A stretch of 64,000 bases of DNA from positions 4,672,001-4,736,000 of the forward strand of contig OZ223209.1 of the NCBI GenBank assembly GCA_965140415.1. Direction: 5' to 3'. Below, one piece after another: positions 3,413 through 24,275 of the stretch (its first letter is position 1; each line of letters starts with the position of its first letter). The notes beneath the pieces were generated by a model. It ran no database searches. It was given only the letters and a program-made list of their open reading frames with translations, and was not told the DNA's origin. The position numbers and the translations under genes are program-made. The DNA is from Myxococcota bacterium (lineage in GTDB: Bacteria; Myxococcota_A; SURF-8).

Positions 3413-5053
3413 CTATTTTACAGGTTGTAAAATCTTGAATCCGTGAACACGCAAGGTATTGATGTGCATTCCGGGGCAGTTCTGCCGCAAGCGGCAGCTT
3501 TGGCAGCGCGTGGAATGCGACCGGTAATCCTTCACGATGTAAGCGCCCGTCAAAGCAGGCATATCCAGCTTTCCTTTTGAATTCAAGGTAGACAACCGCA
3601 GGGTGGGCGCTTCCGGCTCGATTGCGGAATGAATACAGGGTGTTACACCACGAGCGAGCAAACCGCTGTCTGCCCAATGTTTAAAGAATTCAACAGGATT
3701 GGGAAGTTCCTGGGCTTCGGTCAGGGTTTCCACGGAAGCAAATGCCAGGATAACCTTTCCATGTTTGGAAAGCTCCTGGCGGCGTAACAACAAGCCCTCG
3801 GCACTATTGCCATCGACAATGACTTCCAATTCCAAAGACAGGCTCATAAGCCGGTCCAGATCGTCGGGATTCTGGACCACAAGGCGCACCAATCCGGGGA
3901 AACGGACAAGCTCGAAGCGATTCCAGTCCTGTAATTGCAGTATCAGCCGTTCGGGTGAGGCGACTGCGGCGGCAATCCATTTCTCGGCCTGTTCGGCGTT
4001 TTTGGCTTTTACTCGCCATTCCGGCACGGATGTTTCACCCAGCGCGAGTTGCACGATCTCCGGCGCAGGCGACATTTCCCCGGTCAGATCGATGTCCAGA
4101 CATTCGAAATCATGGGTACGCAGGCGGCGCTCGGTATCCATGGCCACATCGCAGAGAGGGCGAATAAAGCAATGTTTGCAGCGCTCACCGTAGCACTGCA
4201 AGGGGCGACCGGTTTTCAAGAAATTGGCGAACTCGTCGCGGCGGCCATGGACCTCATCGTAGAGCTTATGCGGATCTTGAATCAACTGCTCCACGCCTTC
4301 TAAGAATTCGACGGGAAAGCGGTTGGTCCAGATGAAGTTCTCCGGCTGCTGGGCGTGCTTGAAACCTTCGTTGATATAAGGAAACGCCTGCTCGACATCG
4401 TAAAAGAGCTTGTCACGGTGCTCGTCCCACCAGGCACGCCCGAAAGGAACGATTTGAAGCAGATCGAACTCGTGGATACCCAACTTCATATAGAAGTCCA
4501 CGATTTCCTTAAGGTATTTATAGTTCAACCCGTTGATGACAATATCCACGTTGAGCACCACACGGCCATCGCGAATCAGATTGAGCATACCGCGCAATGC
4601 CTGTGCGAAAGCCCCTTTGATGCCTGTCAGCGTATCATGTAACTCCGAGTTGTGACCGTGCATGGAAAAGGTGACTTCGTTCAGTCCGGCGTCGGCGGCT
4701 TTCTGGGCGAATTCCTTGTAGGCGAACATGCGGCCATTGCTGATCGTCTGAATCCAGTCGTAGCCGATCTGCTTGCCGTGCGCGACAAAATCGATGAACT
4801 GAGGATGAATGCTGGCTTCACCGCCGGAAACGATCAGGCGCGCACCGGGTTGAAATCCTTTTTCGATCTCCTCAAAGACTTCCTTTGCCGGTCGATGCCC
4901 ACGCGGGGGCACGTCGCCATCCAGGCAGAAAATGCAACGGTTGTTGCAGGCGTAGGTCGTGCGCACCCAGTTGCGATGCTGATGCACCGCCTCCTCTTTG
5001 ACCTGCTGTCGCTCGGTATCTTCGATGTTGTCTTGCTCAGGCTTCGAAGTCAT
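3413..5053 (-). CDS. Radical SAM protein with long C-terminal extension (Hxs-related clade)
   Basis: CNNRCIFC (CxxxCxxC), SGGEAS; extra Cys clusters CYGERCKHC..C and CQSCRLRQNC. Start placed at ATG 5053 (MTSKPEQ); the longer ORF call reads into the upstream gene. Confidence 0.88.
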   Translation of the reverse strand: MTSKPEQDNIEDTERQQVKEEAVHQHRNWVRTTYACNNRCIFCLDGDVPPRGHRPAKEVFEEIEKGFQPGARLIVSGGEASIHPQFIDFVAHGKQIGYDWIQTISNGRMFAYKEFAQKAADAGLNEVTFSMHGHNSELHDTLTGIKGAFAQALRGMLNLIRDGRVVLNVDIVINGLNYKYLKEIVDFYMKLGIHEFDLLQIVPFGRAWWDEHRDKLFYDVEQAFPYINEGFKHAQQPENFIWTNRFPVEFLEGVEQLIQDPHKLYDEVHGRRDEFANFLKTGRPLQCYGERCKHCFIRPLCDVAMDTERRLRTHDFECLDIDLTGEMSPAPEIVQLALGETSVPEWRVKAKNAEQAEKWIAAAVASPERLILQLQDWNRFELVRFPGLVRLVVQNPDDLDRLMSLSLELEVIVDGNSAEGLLLRRQELSKHGKVILAFASVETLTEAQELPNPVEFFKHWADSGLLARGVTPCIHSAIEPEAPTLRLSTLNSKGKLDMPALTGAYIVKDYRSHSTRCQSCRLRQNCPGMHINTLRVHGFKILQPVK

Positions 5054-5951
5054 GGGCTTTTTCACTACAGGGCTTGAACTCGTCCCAGCCAAAAGCTTCC
5101 GGGTATTCGCGCCAGGGGCCTTCGCAGACATCGTTGTACGCGCATTTTTTGCAGGGCGGTCCCTTGAGTTTACCTTCGTTCCAGCGGTAGTCGGTGTAAT
5201 TCTCCACGACGTGCTCGGCGTCGATGATTTTGGTGTGCGGGATGTAACGCTCGGCCACGAATGCTTCATAACCACTCATGAAGCAGTATGGTATCGCTTC
5301 GGTCATCACGCGACATCCGGCTTTAAGACCGACGGACAAGCCCTTCTTTACATAAGGCTCCACCAACGACTTGCGAGGGACGATCATTTCGAAATTCTGC
5401 TCTGCGCTACCTAAAGCATGGACAAAAGCGAACTGGAACTGATCCACCTTCAGTGCGGAAAACAAGCGGGCCATATCGGGAAGATGGCGGTAATTGGGCC
5501 GGGTGATGACGGAATTCATTACGATCGGCTGCCCTAACGCCTTTAAATTCTGAATGCCTTTCACCGTTTGCTTGAATGCACCCTTGGCATTGACCAGAAA
5601 ATCGTGCAGATCGGGACGATGGCCGTGCAGTGCGGGGCTGAATTCATTGGCTCCCGCTTCGATCAAACGCTCGCAAAAGGCTTTGTCCGCAAACAACCGC
5701 CCATTCGTCTGCACCTGAATCAACCGAAATCCCAACGACTTGGCATGGGCAACCAACTCCACGAAATCGCTGCGGATCGTCACCTCTCCACCGGTGAAGA
5801 CGATGCTGTCGGCATCTTTGATACCATCATCCAGAATTTGCTTAACCTGCTCGGTGGTTTTATTGCCGTACTTATGGCGTTTATCGCCCTGTACGCAGAA
5901 ATAGCAGCGATTGTTGCATTGAAATCCGCATTTTACATCGATCCGGTCCAT
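5037..5951 (-). CDS. Radical SAM protein, HxsC-like, with C-terminal auxiliary Cys motif
   Basis: CNNRCYFC, VFTGGE, IQVQTNGR, PYC, C-terminal CKKCAYNDVCEG; AAGGAA RBS before ATG 5951. Confidence 0.9.
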   Translation of the reverse strand: MDRIDVKCGFQCNNRCYFCVQGDKRHKYGNKTTEQVKQILDDGIKDADSIVFTGGEVTIRSDFVELVAHAKSLGFRLIQVQTNGRLFADKAFCERLIEAGANEFSPALHGHRPDLHDFLVNAKGAFKQTVKGIQNLKALGQPIVMNSVITRPNYRHLPDMARLFSALKVDQFQFAFVHALGSAEQNFEMIVPRKSLVEPYVKKGLSVGLKAGCRVMTEAIPYCFMSGYEAFVAERYIPHTKIIDAEHVVENYTDYRWNEGKLKGPPCKKCAYNDVCEGPWREYPEAFGWDEFKPCSEKAHDFEA

Positions 5952-6078
5952 CCGGTTGTATTCCTTTCTAACGACCAAAGGCAGAGGCCCAAGTTGGCGA
6001 AATCCACTATACTCCCGATTAAGGGAAACTTATTATGATCCGAGCGAGAAATCAATGCAAGGATTGAGAGCTTTTTTC

Positions 6079-12136: not shown

Positions 12137-13525
12137 TTATCTACAGCTAGGCGATTCGATCATCCAGATCTGCGGTTTTTCCGAGCCGTTGCAGAAGAAG
12201 CACTGTGAAGTACCAAGGTACAACTTATCGCGATATACGGCCATCGAAGGGAACCCGTAGTTGCGCTCGTCGCCGAAACCTTCCGGCGCCCAGCGGTCGT
12301 CTTCGCCCACAAGCTGCGAATAATCCAGACCGTTTCCAGACCGATACAGCGCCGCACCCTGTTGATAGGTGCTGAACAATGCCCCTTGATTCATGCAGCC
12401 CATCATCAGCGTATCGTCGAAGATTTCCAAAGCCCAACCGGTGCTCATGCGACCATCGCCGAAACCGTCGTCGCCGATCTTGTTAAAGTTGGCTCCATCC
12501 TTGGTGTAAAACACACCGAAACCGGTCAGTTGATTGCCGGTCGTAAACACTAGATTGCGCTTGAATAGCCGCATGGCTTCGATGCTGGTATGACCCGGAG
12601 GTACCGATTCGACATCCGCCAGGCCGACCAGTTGGGTATAATTCACACCGTCAAAGCGATACAGTTCCGCCGCAACGACGTTCGTGGTACCTGCGAAAAT
12701 ATAGCCCAGAAATTCGGTCATGGAACTGATGGCGGTATTGGAAGGGTTATCGAAGCCGCCTGTGACCCTGGTCATAAAACGACCGCTTTCCCACTTCAGG
12801 ATCTGACCGCCGCCGAAGGGATTTTCCGTTCCGACATAAAGGCTGCCATTGTAGCTCATCATCGAAGCGACGGCCCGATTTTCAGAGGCCCCAAAGCCAT
12901 AGTCGGCCATCAACTGCCAATTGGAACCGTCGGTGGTGTACCAGACTTCCGCACCGGTCACATAGTTCATCGTTCCTGCATACAGGCGACCATCATGAAC
13001 CACAAGCTCGCTAACGGCGAAATTATTCGGACTTTGCAGGCCGTCCGTCACCACGGTTTCCCAGCTTTGCCCGTCGTATACCAGAATCTCTGCGCCATGC
13101 GTACTGTTAGGGCGCTGACTGAAAACGCTGCCGCCTTCCCCGTTTAACGTTCCAACGTACAACTTGTCGTTGAATACGGCCATTGAATAAGCGATACGGT
13201 TCCAGGAATCCCCAACGCTATCATCCGATACCAGTGTTGCACAACGCACCAGCGGTTGTTTTTCGCTATCGATTACATCCAGATCGCCATCCGGCAACGG
13301 GGAATCCTCATCGCCACTGATGCCCTCCCCTTCCTGGTCCATATCGGAAGGAAGCTGGCCATCCCATTCGCTATCGCCATCGGACACTTCCGGTTCGTTG
13401 TATGCGTACATATCCGGCGGCATTTCGTGACAACCCTGCAATACCCACATTGAAAACAGCAGGAAACAACCGACCAGAACCGACGCTTTTGCAAAACTTC
13501 TCATTCCATCCATCCATTTCATCAC
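12137..13525 (-). CDS. Lipoprotein with DGD acidic linker and beta-propeller repeats
   Basis: LQGC lipobox; repeated (F/Y)xxxLYxGT blades and GFG turns. Confidence 0.65.
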   Translation of the reverse strand: MMKWMDGMRSFAKASVLVGCFLLFSMWVLQGCHEMPPDMYAYNEPEVSDGDSEWDGQLPSDMDQEGEGISGDEDSPLPDGDLDVIDSEKQPLVRCATLVSDDSVGDSWNRIAYSMAVFNDKLYVGTLNGEGGSVFSQRPNSTHGAEILVYDGQSWETVVTDGLQSPNNFAVSELVVHDGRLYAGTMNYVTGAEVWYTTDGSNWQLMADYGFGASENRAVASMMSYNGSLYVGTENPFGGGQILKWESGRFMTRVTGGFDNPSNTAISSMTEFLGYIFAGTTNVVAAELYRFDGVNYTQLVGLADVESVPPGHTSIEAMRLFKRNLVFTTGNQLTGFGVFYTKDGANFNKIGDDGFGDGRMSTGWALEIFDDTLMMGCMNQGALFSTYQQGAALYRSGNGLDYSQLVGEDDRWAPEGFGDERNYGFPSMAVYRDKLYLGTSQCFFCNGSEKPQIWMIESPSCR

Positions 13526-17530: not shown

Positions 17531-19690
17531 CTAGCGCTTCAACAGTGAAGAAAGAACCCCTTTTTTCTTCTTAGCATTCATTTCTTCCTGCTTACGCATT
17601 TTCAATAGTCTAACTTCACTTTGAGCGCGCGAGTGTTTCTTGTCGACCTGCAATGTTTTCAAGAACCATTCCGCAGCTTTATTGGTATCTCCAATCGCTT
17701 TATAAATCGTACCCATATAGAAATAGGCGTTCGACAGTTTCTCGTTTAATTCAATGGCTTTTTCAAGGTAACGAACCGCCTCCTGGCGAGTCACCAAATC
17801 CTGCGTGCTCATGTTGAAATGCACCCAGCCAAGTTCAGCAAAGAACTCACCTTCGTTGGGATTCAGCTTGATTGCCTCCTGCAAGTGGCGCTTGGCGGTA
17901 GTCCAATCTTTTTTCCTTGTAGCATTCTGAGCATCGAAGAAGAACTGTTCAGCGGCCAGGATTTTCGCCACTTCTTCGGTAGCATCTTCGTTTCCGCCTT
18001 CCGACATCTCTTTAATGTACTCTGATTTCTTGGTCGAATTGCTCAATGTTTCAGCAGCTTTGGAATAGGTGGTAAAGATCTGGTCCGCCAATTGCCGAAT
18101 TTCTGTAATGTCGCTATGTGCAATCGCATCCGGATGAAATTCCTTGGCGAGTTGCCGAAATTTTTCTTTAACGATGTCGGGTTTGACTTTCTGATCCACA
18201 TCCAACAGAGTAAAATAATCTTTGCCTGCCATCTCTTCTCGCAATTTATACAATCTGAGATAGTGAGCTTTTTGATCCTCATCCATTTTCTGGACGGCAA
18301 GCATCATTTCCATTTTCTGTAACTGCTCTTTACCCAGTGCTTTCGTTCTGGTCGATGTTTTGGAAACATCCTGCTCGGCTTCCTTATTCTTTTCCAATAG
18401 ATGCTTTGCATGTTGATGCATCGCACTTCGTTGTCGAATTCCTCCAGCCAGTGAATTTTCTTCTTCTTCCTCCAAATTTACTTCTTCCCAACTGGGTTGA
18501 TCGAGCGTCAAGGCCTGAATGACAATCAGATGCATGAGAAACGGCAGCATTTCCTTACGGTTCTTTATCGGGGAATCCAATAGTTCATCCAGCGTTTCGG
18601 AACCGTCCAATTGTTGGATATATCTAATTTCTTTAAGATTATAACCGCAAAGGTTCATACGCTCGGAGGCATCGTCCGCAGCCCGAACGGCAGATGTCGC
18701 ATAAGGACGCATCCATGATAACAAAGTTTCTTCTTTTACTTTGTTCATAATACCGTTGCGCAGCAACACAAATGGATGCGCGTCCAGGCGGGAATGCGGA
18801 GCCGGGACATTGGGTGAATTCTTAAAGCTGAAACTGGCACCGCGCCAATTGAAAACGGAATTCAGTTTCAAATCCAGTTGCTTTTTCAATGCTTCCGAGC
18901 GCTGGTACGGCGTGATCGCACCCAGTTCCACTAACAAATCACCATGCTTGCGCCCCGTTTTTTTGAGCAATTCAAAAGAAGAACGGAACATCTCCTCTCC
19001 GATTTCGTGCTCACGCAACATGATCTGGCCCAGACACTCTGAAATAATATTGGAAGCGATCCCGATTGGCTTGCCCTTTTCGAAGGTAATCACCTTCTTG
19101 GCTTTACCCCAGAGTATCATCAACATACCGCTCAAGCGGCGTTCGTAAAGTTGGTTAACGATAACAGGAAATGGCACTTCGTCCATTTTACCAGCAAGTG
19201 GAATCTGGCTCGGACTATAAAGGTAAAATGAGTTTTCAATAAAAGAACGTCCACGACCGGTATCACCAGGCCCTTGACTCTCTCTTTTCGGATAATCCTT
19301 TCCAAAAATCTTGCGCAACACACGAATGATACGCACCGGCGGAATCGGTTTTTCGATGTAATCAAACAACTTGTATTTGGCAATCGACTCACTGGCGTGT
19401 GTACCGCTGCGAAACACACCAGAAATCATCACGACCGGCACCTTGGAATACCCTTTGATCCATCGAAGTTTCTCGCAAACCTGGAAACCGTCCATGTTCG
19501 GCAATAAGGCATCTACAAACACCGCATCGAACACGCGTTCTTTTAAGGTTTCCACCGCAGCAAGACCGTTATATTCCGCATAGGCTTCAAAGCCTTCTTC
19601 CTGCAACAAAGCAAGAAAACCGCTGACAAGCTCCTTGTCATCATCCACCACCAGAACTTTTAACGCTTTTTGGGGGTCATCGTTGGCCAT
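17531..19690 (-). CDS. Receiver-DUF4388-like-DnaJ-TPR protein
   Basis: VLVVDDD, VD phospho-Asp, KP; J-domain AKEFHPD; C-terminal TPRs. Confidence 0.85.
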   Translation of the reverse strand: MANDDPQKALKVLVVDDDKELVSGFLALLQEEGFEAYAEYNGLAAVETLKERVFDAVFVDALLPNMDGFQVCEKLRWIKGYSKVPVVMISGVFRSGTHASESIAKYKLFDYIEKPIPPVRIIRVLRKIFGKDYPKRESQGPGDTGRGRSFIENSFYLYSPSQIPLAGKMDEVPFPVIVNQLYERRLSGMLMILWGKAKKVITFEKGKPIGIASNIISECLGQIMLREHEIGEEMFRSSFELLKKTGRKHGDLLVELGAITPYQRSEALKKQLDLKLNSVFNWRGASFSFKNSPNVPAPHSRLDAHPFVLLRNGIMNKVKEETLLSWMRPYATSAVRAADDASERMNLCGYNLKEIRYIQQLDGSETLDELLDSPIKNRKEMLPFLMHLIVIQALTLDQPSWEEVNLEEEEENSLAGGIRQRSAMHQHAKHLLEKNKEAEQDVSKTSTRTKALGKEQLQKMEMMLAVQKMDEDQKAHYLRLYKLREEMAGKDYFTLLDVDQKVKPDIVKEKFRQLAKEFHPDAIAHSDITEIRQLADQIFTTYSKAAETLSNSTKKSEYIKEMSEGGNEDATEEVAKILAAEQFFFDAQNATRKKDWTTAKRHLQEAIKLNPNEGEFFAELGWVHFNMSTQDLVTRQEAVRYLEKAIELNEKLSNAYFYMGTIYKAIGDTNKAAEWFLKTLQVDKKHSRAQSEVRLLKMRKQEEMNAKKKKGVLSSLLKR

Positions 19691-20087: not shown

Positions 20088-20789
20088 ATGAGTTCGCAGA
20101 CTACGAAAAGTAAAAAGCAATCCACTCCTGCCAAGAAAACGAAGGCAGTTCCTAAAAGCAGCGCGACTAAAAAAACCAGTGCGCCCGCTAAAACCGCGAA
20201 ATCTACAAAAACGACCGCAAAAACCAAAACGGTTAAAAAAGCCGCTGATGGCATTCAAGACGCCACAATCGGCACCAATCAGGTAACATGGTCGATTAAC
20301 CCCAAAATCTATCCACTCGATGTCGTGTACCAGGCCGCTTTTGTGTTCATCGATCGTGCCTACATGCTGTTGGATGTGTCAGCAGACGGAGCCTGGCAGG
20401 TTACACTTAAAGGTAAAACCTCCTTGAAACAAAAAGATTTGACCGCGCTTCAAGGAGAATTTTTCAATGAGTTACTGAACCAAGCCGTTCGCAAGAAGAT
20501 CTCGAAGGACACGAAGAGCTTAAGAGAACTTATTTTAGCCAAGGCACTCTTTGCCGCCGCACGACCTGGTGAGTTGGATCAGATCCGAGAAAACGTCGCC
20601 GCCCCTCCCCGTCAGCAGTCCGAAGAAACCGTTCGGCCTTGGGACGAAGCAACTCAGGAAGAACAGGATGAACTGGACAAGCTGTTGAAAGAAATCGAAG
20701 AAGATTTCGCAGACGATCCGATGGGCATTGCCGTGCCATGGGATGAAAAATATGGCGAAGACGGCGAAAAGAAAAAAGAGGAGGATTAG
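20088..20789 (+). CDS. hxsD: His-Xaa-Ser system HxsD-like protein with basic N-tail and acidic C-tail
   Basis: INPKIYPLDVVYQAAFVFIDRAY..GEFFNELLNQAVR..ISKDT..LRELILAKAL core; AAGGA RBS. Confidence 0.75.
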   Translation: MSSQTTKSKKQSTPAKKTKAVPKSSATKKTSAPAKTAKSTKTTAKTKTVKKAADGIQDATIGTNQVTWSINPKIYPLDVVYQAAFVFIDRAYMLLDVSADGAWQVTLKGKTSLKQKDLTALQGEFFNELLNQAVRKKISKDTKSLRELILAKALFAAARPGELDQIRENVAAPPRQQSEETVRPWDEATQEEQDELDKLLKEIEEDFADDPMGIAVPWDEKYGEDGEKKKEED

Positions 20790-20993
20790 GCAAGCCTTAT
20801 CCTAAAATCTCTTTGTTTTCGTTAATGATTCCCATTGTATCGCAGAACTGAAAAACGCCTCTCCATTGCACAGTCATCAACTTCGTGCTATCATATCGGA
20901 ATAATGAATGGTTAAAATCAGTTGTACTATATAGTATGAAAATAACCTGCGATAAAACACATTGCCAGGTTTTTTTAACGGTGTGAGGATTGA

Positions 20994-22112
20994 ATGAAGA
21001 AAGCATGGATCATTATCGCGATTTTAGCGATTGTGGCGATCATTGATATCGCTGTTCGATATTCCTCCAACCAGCCTAGCAGCGAACTCCAACCGCCTAC
21101 AGAATTTTCCAAAAATAAAAACGCAGATCAAACCAAACCACGCCCCAAGGGGCGTATCACGCGCCAGGAGTTCATGAAAACCCAGGGGAAGAAACAGGTT
21201 GTGCAGGCAAAACCGAAATGGTGCAAGTCTGCCATGCAGAATCTACTCTCTAAAAAAGGATCGGAAATCAACCGTAAGGATCTGGAATTTATCTCTCGCC
21301 TTGCCACTAAAAAAGCACGAGATTCTGCCTGGGTCTACATCAGTAACTATCTTGGTTGTCGGGCATTGGAAAATGATGACATCCGCTATTGCCGCCCGGT
21401 AAGTGGCGTCCACTTTTCAGAAACATTTCATGACTGCACCATCAATTTCAGATCCTGGCGTTTTCTGGATTTATACCTATACCGGAAAGTTGATTTGGCT
21501 GCATTTGAAACTGCCATCAAGGAATACAATGTAGACACCCAAACCTGGATGAAAACGGTGTATCAGGCTGTTCATGAAGATCGGTCTTCGGTTTGCGGCT
21601 CGTTGCCATTTGAAGAACGTTCATCGTGTACGATTTTGGTAGACACGATCAATGGACGGAATATTGAAGACAAAGTTGTGATGAATGACACCGTGAAAAT
21701 CATCCGAGAACTTTTCCAAACCCAAAACCTTAATATAATCAGTGACATCAGAAAATTGGATGGGGGCACTTACCTGGCTGACATTCTTAGCATGATTATG
21801 CTCAAACAAAGCCACTGCGAAAACATTCTGATCCGTGGGTTTGAAAACTCACTGTGTGAACCCCCACCTTTACAGATTAATCTTCCGCCACACCTACAAG
21901 ATCCATCCCAAATCCCGACCAAAAAAAATCAGAAAAATGATGGAATCGATGACTACGTAGCTGATCCAGACGATTTTAAGAATCAAGATAACGGTACACA
22001 AGAGAACCTGAACAACAGCGATCAAGCACAGCCAATGGATCTACCATCAGGACCATATCCATCTGTTCCACCTTCCCCTTCATCTCCATCGGAGAACGGT
22101 TCACCGGAGTAA
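20994..22112 (+). CDS. Hypothetical N-terminally membrane-anchored protein with spaced Cys and Pro/Asp-rich tail
   Basis: 372-aa ORF, GAGG RBS, MKKA plus hydrophobic helix, 7 bp from the downstream rSAM gene. Confidence 0.7.
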   Translation: MKKAWIIIAILAIVAIIDIAVRYSSNQPSSELQPPTEFSKNKNADQTKPRPKGRITRQEFMKTQGKKQVVQAKPKWCKSAMQNLLSKKGSEINRKDLEFISRLATKKARDSAWVYISNYLGCRALENDDIRYCRPVSGVHFSETFHDCTINFRSWRFLDLYLYRKVDLAAFETAIKEYNVDTQTWMKTVYQAVHEDRSSVCGSLPFEERSSCTILVDTINGRNIEDKVVMNDTVKIIRELFQTQNLNIISDIRKLDGGTYLADILSMIMLKQSHCENILIRGFENSLCEPPPLQINLPPHLQDPSQIPTKKNQKNDGIDDYVADPDDFKNQDNGTQENLNNSDQAQPMDLPSGPYPSVPPSPSSPSENGSPE

Positions 22113-22119
22113 AAGCAGT

Positions 22120-23112
22120 ATGGCCAACCTCGGATATATTCAACTTGCCAGGCGATGCAATCAGAAGTGTGTCTTCTGTTCAAACCCTCCCAATGGACGG
22201 ATCATCAGCCTGGATGATGCCAAGCGTTTCGTCGATGACTTTATAGAACGCCAGTATCACGGCATCATCCTCACGGGAGGGGAGCCAACCCTGTTCGGTC
22301 CGATTACGGAACTGCTCAATTACGCCAGAGAGCGCGACATCCCCATGCGCATGGTCAGTAACGGCCAAAAGACTGCCGATTTCGACTATTTGAAATCGTT
22401 GGTCGATGCCGGACTGGTGCAATTGCACTTATCGATTCACAGCGTTCGCGAGAAGGTAGAGGACTACCTGACCCAAATTCCCGGCTCATTCAAGAATCAG
22501 ATGAAAAGCCTGGAAAACGCCGCTAAACTTGGTTTGAACACAGACATCAACTGTGTCATCAACAAGCTGAATGCCGATCATCTGGATGAAAATGTCAAAT
22601 GGCTGACCAATCGGTTTCCCAAGATTCATCATTTCGTGTGGAATAACTTGGACCCTTGCCTGAATGACGAAATGGACCGCTCGGTGATCGCTCGTCTCTC
22701 GGATTTCGAAATCTCGCTTTTCAAGGCCATGTATTACCTGGAACGCACCGGACGCAGTTTCCGTGTCGAGCGAGTACCACTCTGCTACATGGCCGATTAT
22801 GCTGCATTTTCTACGGAAACCCGAAAAATCATCAAAGACGAGGAGCGCATCGTTCATTTCCTGGATCAGAAAGAAACGGTACATCAAGTCAATTTCGCCC
22901 ATGGAAAATTCGATATTTGCAAAACCTGCCGATACGAACCGATCTGCGCTGGCCTGTTCATGCTTGGTAATGGTTATGATCCCAAAGAACTCTCCCCGAT
23001 CTTTTTGGATCCGAACAAGGTTGTGGAAAAAGTACTTCATCGACCCGATCCCGACCGGATTGAGCGTATCAAGCGCAAAAACAGTGACATGACCCATCCG
23101 GATCGGTCATGA
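22120..23112 (+). CDS. Radical SAM protein, HxsC-related
   Basis: MANLGYIQ..RCNQKCVFCSNP, ILTGGEPT, VPLC, C-terminal CKTCRYEPICAG. Confidence 0.9.
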   Translation: MANLGYIQLARRCNQKCVFCSNPPNGRIISLDDAKRFVDDFIERQYHGIILTGGEPTLFGPITELLNYARERDIPMRMVSNGQKTADFDYLKSLVDAGLVQLHLSIHSVREKVEDYLTQIPGSFKNQMKSLENAAKLGLNTDINCVINKLNADHLDENVKWLTNRFPKIHHFVWNNLDPCLNDEMDRSVIARLSDFEISLFKAMYYLERTGRSFRVERVPLCYMADYAAFSTETRKIIKDEERIVHFLDQKETVHQVNFAHGKFDICKTCRYEPICAGLFMLGNGYDPKELSPIFLDPNKVVEKVLHRPDPDRIERIKRKNSDMTHPDRS

Positions 23113-24275
23113 CGGAAGACGTTGCGCCAGGGGGCTGGCTCCATTACTTGATTCTATTCCCAGCTCTTTATCTTGGCATCGTCACTTCTATCGAAGACAC
23201 CCGTTTCGGAAAAATCTACCGCCACCATATTCGGTTCGGCATCGTTATCGGCTTGGTCTGGTTGGCTGCTCTGGTCGTGTTTCATCTTTTCTTTCTAAAA
23301 GATTTCGGTTTCTTGTTGCAGAGCCTACCACACTGCCTTCTTGCCGCACTCATCGCGCTTGTGTTATCCGGCGGTATGTGGTGGTTCAACGTATGGTCGG
23401 CCGCGGACGCCAAGCTGTTTTCCGTTTTTACACTGCTGCTTCCCGTTCCGGTTATCATGGCGCACCATTCACCCACGCTGTTTTCACTGACGCTGATGGT
23501 AAACGTCTATACGGTGGCATTCGTATTGATCTGCGCCGATTTTATTTTACGCTTCACTTCTCGCGGCACGGGGAAGCTAGGCCTGTTCTTTCATGCAGCA
23601 TCTGCCGAAAGGCGAGATATCTTAAAAAGCGGAATTGACTATTTTCGTGAGAATGTACCAGGTTGGATTAAAACTTTCATCGGCATCGCGTTAATTCTAG
23701 TGCTCGTGCGCACACTCAGAAGAGCCGTCAGTGATGAATTGCAGCAGGTCGTAACACTAGACCCTACCCTGCTCTTTCTGGCTCTCTTCCTTGCTTTCCG
23801 TCCCCTGCATATGCTCTTTCAAATCAAAGCCGTCGCAATTGTCGCTCTGCTTGGATTTGTAACTTTCCTCGGCTACGAGTGGTACCTTGATCCTACAGGG
23901 CAACGCCTGCTCGAATCCGCCAGCGTTGGCGGTTGGGCATTGGGACTGATTCTATTCAGGCAGGTATACAGCTATTGGACAAGCCTGGTGGAACAAAGGC
24001 GAATTTCCCTGCAAGACCTGCGGGAACACCTGATTCTTGCTACCAGCACTCGCTCCGAGCTGCAAGCTCAGAATGTATTTTCAGAAGAAGAAATGAAACA
24101 GATCGGAGTTGAAGGACTCAACGCCGAACAAGTCTTACGGATTCAACAACTATACCAAGATCCGGAAGAACAGCAGCAGATTGCCATTGAAAATACAATC
24201 CCCTTTGCCCCCTTTATTTTCGGTGGTTACTTGGCCACCATCTACGTTGGAGATGTACTTTTAAAACTGCATTAG
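23109..24275 (+). CDS. A24 prepilin/preflagellin-peptidase-like polytopic aspartyl protease
   Basis: First Asp in SIEDTRFGKI, second in WSAADAKLF (GxGD-like), C-terminal IPFAPFIFGG; ATGA overlap with the rSAM gene. Confidence 0.7.
   Translation: MTEDVAPGGWLHYLILFPALYLGIVTSIEDTRFGKIYRHHIRFGIVIGLVWLAALVVFHLFFLKDFGFLLQSLPHCLLAALIALVLSGGMWWFNVWSAADAKLFSVFTLLLPVPVIMAHHSPTLFSLTLMVNVYTVAFVLICADFILRFTSRGTGKLGLFFHAASAERRDILKSGIDYFRENVPGWIKTFIGIALILVLVRTLRRAVSDELQQVVTLDPTLLFLALFLAFRPLHMLFQIKAVAIVALLGFVTFLGYEWYLDPTGQRLLESASVGGWALGLILFRQVYSYWTSLVEQRRISLQDLREHLILATSTRSELQAQNVFSEEEMKQIGVEGLNAEQVLRIQQLYQDPEEQQQIAIENTIPFAPFIFGGYLATIYVGDVLLKLH

Follow-up and report, generated by a model that had tools for sequence, protein, structure and literature searches.

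A FlaK-like membrane protease gene linked to HxsD and radical SAM genes in a Myxococcota bacterium: a probable dispersed part of an expanded Hxs system

The 64,000-nucleotide stretch analyzed here (the window below; positions 4,672,001 to 4,736,000 of contig OZ223209.1, GenBank assembly GCA_965140415.1, from a Myxococcota bacterium) carries at positions 20,088 to 24,275 four co-oriented genes whose products are, in order, an HxsD homologue, a Cys-rich membrane-anchored protein, a radical S-adenosylmethionine (SAM) enzyme that we call R1, and a divergent membrane protease of the A24/GxGD aspartyl type (Table 1). The first two genes are separated by 204 bp and the last three are tightly linked, with a 7-bp gap followed by a 4-bp ATGA overlap. 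The gene next downstream of the protease gene is convergent, and a gene for a response-regulator/DUF4388/DnaJ/TPR fusion (17531-19690, minus strand) diverges from hxsD. Scans for promoters and terminators gave results that were not above those of shuffles. No type IV pilus or type II secretion system (T2SS) families were found among the 55 window open reading frames (ORFs) scanned, and searches with family models found neither HxsA nor HxsB within the 64-kb window. A first-pass annotation of this DNA, made from its letters alone, had described the same gene arrangement, the HxsD-like first product, the membrane-anchored Cys protein, the C-terminal CxxC-x5-C motif of the radical SAM enzyme, the two Asp motifs and FlaK-like PFAP ending of the protease, and the absence of HxsA, HxsB, pilus and T2SS genes from the window; from these it had proposed an undescribed modification system, independent of HxsA and HxsB, with a membrane-anchored or pilin-like substrate rather than a soluble HxS peptide. 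Its observation is confirmed by the measurements described below and its interpretation is partly supported.

Table 1. Positions of the Hxs-related genes in the window and at the distant operon; positions without a prefix are those of the window, and C1 positions are those of the organism's own genome (aa, amino acids)
Feature	Position	Strand	Details
HxsD homologue	20088..20789	+	233 aa from ATG; GAAGGA ribosome-binding site upstream; TIGR03976
Cys-rich membrane-anchored protein (CysMem)	20994..22112	+	372 aa; no Pfam or NCBIfam match
Radical SAM enzyme R1, HxsC-like, probable HxsD partner	22120..23112	+	330 aa; PF04055
Divergent A24/GxGD aspartyl membrane protease, FlaK/EppA-like	23109..24275	+	388 aa
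HxsC4-like radical SAM enzyme R0a	5037..5978	-	313 aa; NF038332, TIGR03977
Long HxsC4-like radical SAM enzyme R0b	3413..5275	-	620-aa ORF; NF038332, PF04055
HxsD_rel	C1:3.575-3.578 Mb	-	70.5 bits, cut-off 41
HxsB	C1:3576526-3577926	-	TIGR03978, 558.8-559 bits, cut-off 370
HxsA4 precursor, His-Gly-Ser repeat	C1:3.575-3.578 Mb	-	134 aa; 63.8 bits, cut-off 55
Further (fourth) radical SAM enzyme	C1:3.575-3.578 Mb	-	compact operon (L099:8099-11175) with HxsD_rel, HxsB and HxsA4

The HxsD homologue matches TIGR03976 over residues 71-155 with 64.8 bits (cut-off 50) and is the sole match to that model in its own genome; its N-terminal tail is rich in Lys, Thr and Ala, and its C-terminal extension is acidic. 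R1 matches the radical SAM family PF04055 at 2.4e-25, and its top NCBIfam match is HxsC (TIGR03977, 98.1 bits, below the cut-off of 267.9, which none of the 40 matches in the own genome passes); against the HxsC4 model (NF038332) it scores 67.5 bits (cut-off 500). The cysteines of its CxxxCxxC motif (C13, C17 and C20) are invariant in 17/17 orthologues, and so are C222, C267, C270 and C276. The CxxC-x5-C motif formed within this second set is thus real, and by their conservation the four extra cysteines are probably an auxiliary cluster site. R1 orthologues adjoin HxsD and HxsB in relatives (among them loci L110, L111, L112 and L117), and we regard R1 as the probable partner of HxsD.

That the protease family belongs to the A24/GxGD type is clear from its sequences, as follows: D30 and D100 are invariant in an alignment of 13 family members and also in 45 sequences with identities down to 18%, D100 stands in the family consensus A-G-D-A-K-L (A-A-D-A-K-L in the window protein), and F366-A367-P368 near the C-terminus is invariant in the 13 sequences. 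The window protein has no Pfam match at E<=0.1 and is thus below the threshold of PF01478, and an NCBIfam search gave a weak match to the C-terminus of EppA (E=0.0063); NCBIfam has no model covering either this protein or the Cys-rich one. Within the family, PF01478 is matched by 7 of the 13 members (E<=1, best 4.3e-5) and Arc_PepC_II by 6, and distant A24-like relatives from five candidate-phyla-radiation genomes reach 23.9-28.8 bits against Pfam Peptidase_A24 (cut-off 26.5). Comparison by VIA-align of an AlphaFold2 model of the window protease (predicted local distance difference test score, pLDDT, 88.1; predicted TM-score 0.82) gave FlaK (3s0x_B) at Z 12.7 with a root-mean-square deviation of 3.4 Å and 162/186 residues aligned, the next structure having Z 6.1. 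Foldseek found no match for the model in the PDB at E<=0.001, and the 13-sequence profile, run against the sequences of solved structures, returned nothing relevant at E<=1. Between its two halves the protein has a helical insertion of about 170 residues (approximately residues 122-294) that is absent from FlaK.

The N-terminal domain of PilD (A24_N_bact) has no match in the window protease, and the own genome holds a canonical PilD (A24_N_bact 126 bits, Peptidase_A24 80 bits) at C1:5.548 Mb, 0.85 Mb from the window, between genes for a sigma-54 activator and a histidine kinase. We therefore reject the possibility, raised by the first-pass annotation as one that would undo its proposal, that the window protease is the sole housekeeping PilD; the conclusion that it is a dedicated enzyme is supported.

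HxsB and an HxsA-type precursor are both present in the own genome outside the window. At a distance of 1.12 Mb from the window locus, a compact operon encodes HxsD_rel, HxsB, HxsA4 and a further radical SAM enzyme (Table 1) and contains neither a TIGR03976 HxsD nor an A24 gene. The canonical HxsA model, TIGR03979, has no match in this genome. A second HxsA4-like precursor, also 134 aa long and with the same leader and hydrophobic stretch, is encoded at C1:0.964 Mb (L129:245-649, minus strand; L140), where it stands alone with no Hxs gene found by tblastn within 7 kb, and an R1 paralogue with 46% identity lies near another HxsC4-like radical SAM gene at C1:2.93 Mb (L141:8431-9351, minus strand, and 12403-13299, plus strand), a pair that may represent another incomplete copy of the system. 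The R0a/R0b pair (window 3413-5978) lies 15 kb upstream of the four-gene locus on the other strand. R0a has the top HxsC-model score in the genome (TIGR03977, 111.2 bits; NF038332 HxsC4, 165.5 bits, cut-off 500), and R0b matches NF038332 with 104.5 bits (cut-off 500) and PF04055 at 1.7e-17; the true start of R0b is uncertain, because the ORF as called begins 239 bp inside the upstream gene. PADLOC (2023, without an HXS model) matched the radical SAM cores only, weakly and with viperin models; HxsD, the Cys protein, the protease and HxsA4 gave no match.

Relatives that lack the protease gene carry the same gene set in a single cluster, in locus L115 in the order R0b-R1-HxsD-HxsB-HxsA-(radical SAM)-R0a. 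R0a homologues lie inside the Hxs clusters of relatives, and R0b homologues (32-41% identity) are directly upstream of the R1 orthologue in L110, L111, L115 and L117. From this comparison of gene content we therefore take the window locus to be one of three scattered parts that make up an expanded Hxs system, and R1 and HxsD of the window to belong to the system of the distant HxsB/HxsA4 operon. The proposed independence from HxsA and HxsB does not hold, given that HxsD_rel, HxsB, HxsA4 and a radical SAM gene are in the own genome and that R1 goes with HxsB in other genomes (below). What the first-pass annotation had feared, a canonical hxsA/hxsB locus elsewhere that accounts for these enzymes, is found in part: HxsB and HxsA4 stand together and a second HxsA4 is an orphan, with the canonical HxsA model unmatched. 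Its claim that the four genes stand alone is not supported. The family-model searches it had suggested put HxsD and HxsB above their cut-offs, but not HxsC, HxsA (TIGR03979) or the window protease.

The protease gene is kept beside radical SAM genes well outside this organism. A pattern-plus-tblastn scan of one genome per species gave 208 relatives of the protease, of which 80 loci were kept, from Myxococcota, candidate-phyla-radiation groups, Planctomycetota, Omnitrophota, Spirochaetota, Margulisiibacteriota and archaea (ORF calling is crude in the GC-rich loci). Upstream DNA of 1.2 kb or more is available for 74 of these loci. Among them, a same-strand radical SAM gene ends no more than 700 bp upstream of the protease gene in 51; any radical SAM gene is present in 64, and three or more, up to seven, in 45. 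Chance juxtaposition of the two genes is excluded because the pair is conserved across genomes, and the neighbourhood that the first-pass annotation had wished to see conserved is indeed so. Locus L087 has the order HxsD-HxsB-HxsA-(radical SAM)-A24, which is the canonical set plus the protease.

These neighbourhoods tie the protease to radical SAM enzymes, and does it also accompany the Hxs system? By genome it does. HxsB was looked for in the 48 genomes behind the first 50 of the 80 loci and in 14 control genomes, and it was found in 41 of the 48 (40 above cut-off) vs none of the controls; most of the seven without it are assemblies of very small size. A sample of 251 genomes of the organism's own phylum, in which R1 orthologues were taken at 44% identity or more, contained HxsB in 93, R1 orthologues in 89 and the A24-like protease in 31. 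HxsB is present in 31/31 protease-positive vs 62/220 protease-negative genomes; the raw Fisher p-value of 1e-15 for this association overstates the case because related genomes are not independent. R1 and HxsB occur together in 88 genomes, R1 alone in 1 and HxsB alone in 5. Comparison of coordinates by hand placed R1 within 600 bp of the protease gene in 23 of the 31 protease-positive genomes.

The Cys-rich protein has a much narrower distribution. It consists of an MKK start, one hydrophobic N-terminal helix, a disordered linker, an all-alpha domain and a Pro/Ser-rich tail, and its family conserves the MKK, the N-terminal helix with one Asp, and eight Cys positions, which lie in the all-alpha domain; the residue following MKK is not a conserved small one. 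No Pfam or NCBIfam model matches it, a word-based homologue search returned only the protein itself, tblastn found no match in the 80 protease loci, and the ESM Atlas gave one match at 0.83, which is a lead only. Only an exhaustive profile search recovered its family, with 35 representatives at E<=1e-3, of which 26 reach E<=1e-10. Its structural model (pLDDT 78) has an all-helical core, for which the top Z of a fold search, 5.9, is within noise. The protein occurs in 9 genomes of the phylum sample, all from the organism's own order and all protease holders, and its gene is directly upstream of R1 in 8 of the 9, including G060, G066 and G096, in which the protease gene is elsewhere. Because it stays beside R1 even there, the Cys protein is tied to the radical SAM enzyme more than to the protease. 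Eight paired cysteines in an all-helical domain suggest disulfides outside the cytoplasm, and most likely the protein is an accessory of R1 that lies outside the cytoplasm and carries disulfide bonds; it is probably not a substrate of the protease.

The HxsA precursors themselves differ with the presence of the protease. Twelve aligned HxsA leaders are basic with an invariant P, L and E-E, and in 12/12 a small residue (G, A or S) follows the leader and precedes an uncharged hydrophobic stretch, which makes it a candidate cleavage site. A profile of the leader region matches 57 of the 251 genomes, all of them HxsB-positive; leader-type HxsA is found in 30 of the 31 protease-positive genomes with 51-92 bits, and protease-negative genomes give 47 bits or less with one exception, G271, an 82%-complete assembly. 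The longest uncharged run behind the HxsA leader has a median of 18 residues (range 12-23) in protease-positive genomes or loci (n=21) and 10 (7-15) in protease-negative genomes (n=14), and the median 13-residue hydropathy maxima are 1.53 and 0.73, respectively; some HxsA ORFs contain masked runs, so that repeat numbers are not readable. A midpoint-rooted HxsB gene tree of 29 rows places the protease-negative rows in two clades (support 100/100 and 98/95) nested among protease-positive rows of the own and other phyla. This tree fits two losses of the protease, each with loss of the HxsA hydrophobic stretch, which amounts to two contrasts and not to proof. A separate observation concerns HxsA of the protease-negative genome G051 (L131:113-568, minus strand), where a twin-arginine-like signal, R-R-N-F-L, takes the place of the leader and hydrophobic stretch, a hint that HxS peptides have a third route of export.

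We consider it somewhat probable that the locus is a dispersed part of an expanded Hxs system in which the A24-like protease removes the leader of a membrane-inserted HxsA4. Since R1 and HxsD belong with the HxsB/HxsA4 system of their own genome, the most likely substrate is an HxS-repeat peptide carrying a hydrophobic segment, and it is likely that this substrate is inserted in the membrane; the membrane-bound half of the first-pass suggestion about the substrate thus stands, and its non-HxS half does not. The proposed steps are as follows: HxsD, together with R1, HxsB and the other radical SAM enzymes, would modify the HxsA4 precursor in the cytoplasm after these enzymes have recognized its conserved basic leader. 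The uncharged hydrophobic stretch behind the leader would insert into the inner membrane, and the A24-like protease, whose active site is presumed to face the cytoplasm like those of prepilin and preflagellin peptidases, would sever the leader beside the small residue (G, A or S) where that stretch begins. This would leave the mature His-Gly-Ser repeat peptide released or anchored on the outer side of the membrane, where, by analogy with the HXS system of Escherichia coli, the product may form an envelope barrier against phage DNA entry. More tentatively, and at slightly less than even odds, we propose that a family of FlaK-like GxGD proteases might be the dedicated leader peptidase of radical-SAM-modified His-x-Ser repeat peptides, whose leader would first guide the enzymes and then be cut at the cytoplasmic face by a route like that of class III signals, with the disulfide-rich membrane protein joining in within this order.

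Several observations weigh against these proposals. R1 falls below the cut-offs of both the HxsC and the HxsC4 models, and a marker specific to Hxs (HxsD, HxsD_rel, HxsB or an HxS-repeat ORF) lies within 8 kb in only 15 of the 80 protease loci. The A24-like gene is apart from R1 in 8 of the 31 protease-positive genomes of the phylum sample; in G060 megabases separate the two, and in G066 and G096 each is on a contig of its own. HxsB is also present in the 62 genomes of that sample without an A24-like gene and the E. coli HXS system works without a dedicated one, so the protease is inessential to Hxs chemistry. The co-variation of protease and hydrophobic stretch rests on about two inferred losses in a midpoint-rooted gene tree of non-independent genomes. 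Finally, the HxsA stretch has neither the G-F-T-L-I-E nor the Glu at +5 of the classical pilin motif, and, being short and having Ala-x-Ala-like residues behind it, could be no more than a normal Sec signal peptide cleaved by signal peptidase I.

If signal peptidase I does free the HxS peptide, the protease could act afterwards as an intramembrane GxGD protease of the signal-peptide-peptidase/presenilin type that cuts or clears the remnant of leader and anchor, or it could be mainly an export or scaffold partner. The GxGD fold with its large helical insertion, which gives helices beyond those of FlaK, and the Ala-x-Ala-like residues behind the hydrophobic stretch of the HxsA leaders are what one would look for in that case, and the co-occurrence data fit it equally well. 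We nevertheless think it unlikely, as the nearest relatives of the protein in structure and in sequence are FlaK/EppA-type peptidases; family A24 peptidases of this type cut at the boundary of the n-region and the h-region. A purely structural role is further disfavoured because both aspartates are invariant. An idea nearer to that of the first-pass annotation, that the protein processes the Cys-rich membrane protein after its modification by R1 and that the four genes form a self-contained unit independent of HxsA and HxsB, draws on the tight linkage of the last three genes, the conserved MKK-plus-helix N-terminus and the position of the Cys gene directly upstream of R1 in all but one of its holders. 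It appears very unlikely to us: the Cys protein is confined to one order, and the protease is found in 31 genomes of the sample and reaches other phyla and archaea; the Cys gene keeps to the radical SAM gene where the protease gene is elsewhere (G060, G066 and G096); the residue behind MKK is not conserved as a small one; the eight paired cysteines in an all-helical domain suggest extracytoplasmic disulfides; and the radical SAM enzyme tracks HxsB, in 88 of 89 genomes.

Could the protease instead be a second prepilin-type peptidase with pilin-like or pseudopilin substrates, the radical SAM neighbours being either their modification enzymes or an inherited gene order? What speaks for this, and with it against leader removal from HxsA4, comes from seven candidate-phyla-radiation loci (L055, L059, L062, L065, L069, L073 and L094), where the A24-like gene is followed by a run of genes for an Ig/PKD protein, three or four small proteins of which three have the N_methyl motif, and a trypsin-like peptidase; the pilin-like products could be substrates. 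T2SSE and T2SSF genes lie downstream in three further loci (L056, L076 and L083). We judge this reading quite unlikely nonetheless, given that the 55 window ORFs scanned yielded no pilin, T2SS or type IV pilus gene, that a canonical PilD is present in the own genome and a canonical A24 peptidase also in 4/5 of those small genomes, that every protease holder of the phylum sample has HxsB, and that the association with radical SAM genes spans Myxococcota, candidate-phyla-radiation groups, Planctomycetota, Omnitrophota, Spirochaetota and archaea.

How does this arrangement compare with known systems? HXS has been described as an anti-phage system that blocks phage DNA entry, in which HxsC binds HxsD and HxsA requires a non-canonical N-terminal cleavage; in the portion of that paper available to us the responsible activity is not named, and neither "peptidase" nor "prepilin" appears in the main text (Li et al., Nat Commun 2026, PMC13128918). 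HxsB and HxsC are only named in the available part of another paper (PMC9062424). No paper linking A24 peptidases to Hxs came out of literature searches for Hxs terms or for prepilin peptidase combined with radical SAM, and those for Hxs terms gave no paper on the HxsA3, HxsA4, HxsC4 and HxsD_rel variants. The genes described here resemble the HXS system of E. coli, Klebsiella and their relatives (HxsD-HxsB-HxsC-HxsA; TIGR03976-03979) in that HxsD and HxsB of the own genome are above cut-off, the HxsC-like radical SAM enzyme has a second Cys cluster, and the precursor has His-x-Ser repeats and an N-terminal export signal that needs cleavage. They differ from it in that one hxsD-B-C-A operon is replaced by three chromosomal loci, two radical SAM genes by at least five, and the canonical HxsA by a small HxsA4-type precursor (about 134 aa, with a long His-Gly-Ser run) that has no TIGR03979 match and in which no peptidoglycan-binding domain was noticed, HxsA4 having had no Pfam scan. 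An HxsD_rel, the Cys-rich membrane protein and the dedicated A24-type protease are additional here, and the host is a member of the Myxococcota, whereas the HXS systems of that study are 99.7% from Pseudomonadota (PMC13128918). Among the NCBIfam variants HxsA3 (NF038309), HxsA4 (NF038313), HxsC4 (NF038332) and HxsD_rel (NF038315), the distant operon passes the cut-offs for HxsA4 and HxsD_rel, and HxsC4 or HxsC ranks first or nearly first among the matches of the three window radical SAM proteins, although their HxsC4 scores (67.5, 104.5 and 165.5 bits) are far below 500. The locus is best described as a new variant form of the HXS system.

The protease shares with FlaK, EppA and PibD and with the bacterial TadV/CpaA peptidases, GxGD enzymes that cleave class III signal peptides, the FlaK fold and two invariant aspartates with the second in G/A-D-A-K-L; with EppA it also shares the F-A-P motif near the C-terminus, and like the archaeal-type A24, TadV and CpaA enzymes it lacks the N-terminal domain of PilD. 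It differs from the archaeal-type enzymes in its helical insertion, in having radical SAM and Hxs partners rather than pilus or archaellum genes, and in a presumed substrate, HxsA4, without a classical pilin motif. Leader peptidases of ribosomal peptide natural products, such as the peptidase-containing ATP-binding cassette (ABC) transporters, couple leader removal to export. The model proposed above resembles these in that a leader that guides the enzymes would be removed at the membrane as the product exits, and differs in that a GxGD aspartyl protease would take the place of a C39 cysteine protease, no ABC transporter is involved, and the substrate would insert by its own hydrophobic segment.

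Expanded relatives of the HXS system occur in 93 of the 251 sampled phylum genomes, the number with HxsB, and also in candidate-phyla-radiation bacteria and archaea. A dedicated protease gene opens the cleavage step to direct testing; the gene tracks HxsB by genome, and where it is present the precursor tends to have a hydrophobic segment. Should the proposal be correct, it would supply the kind of protease that the published anti-phage work on HXS could not name, would extend the substrates of prepilin-type peptidases to modified peptides, the class-III-like route having so far been one for pilins and archaellins only, and would be a new way of coupling leader removal to export.

Some minor features of the clusters in relatives were also recorded. 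In or near the Hxs clusters of three very small genomes two kinds of A24 peptidase occur, a canonical-type one of about 260 aa and the A24-like one of 400 aa; the former is encoded 1.2-1.5 kb upstream of HxsB (G036:C8, G040:C2 and G045:C32, corresponding to loci L055, L059 and L065). A conserved protein of 62-99 aa without a family match is encoded just upstream of the last radical SAM gene before the A24-like gene in loci L032, L035, L043, L054, L056, L067, L076, L083, L086 and L091, and a protein of about 330 aa with the motif G-Y-P-x-C-C, likewise without a family match, recurs in 13 loci that form an overlapping but non-identical set.

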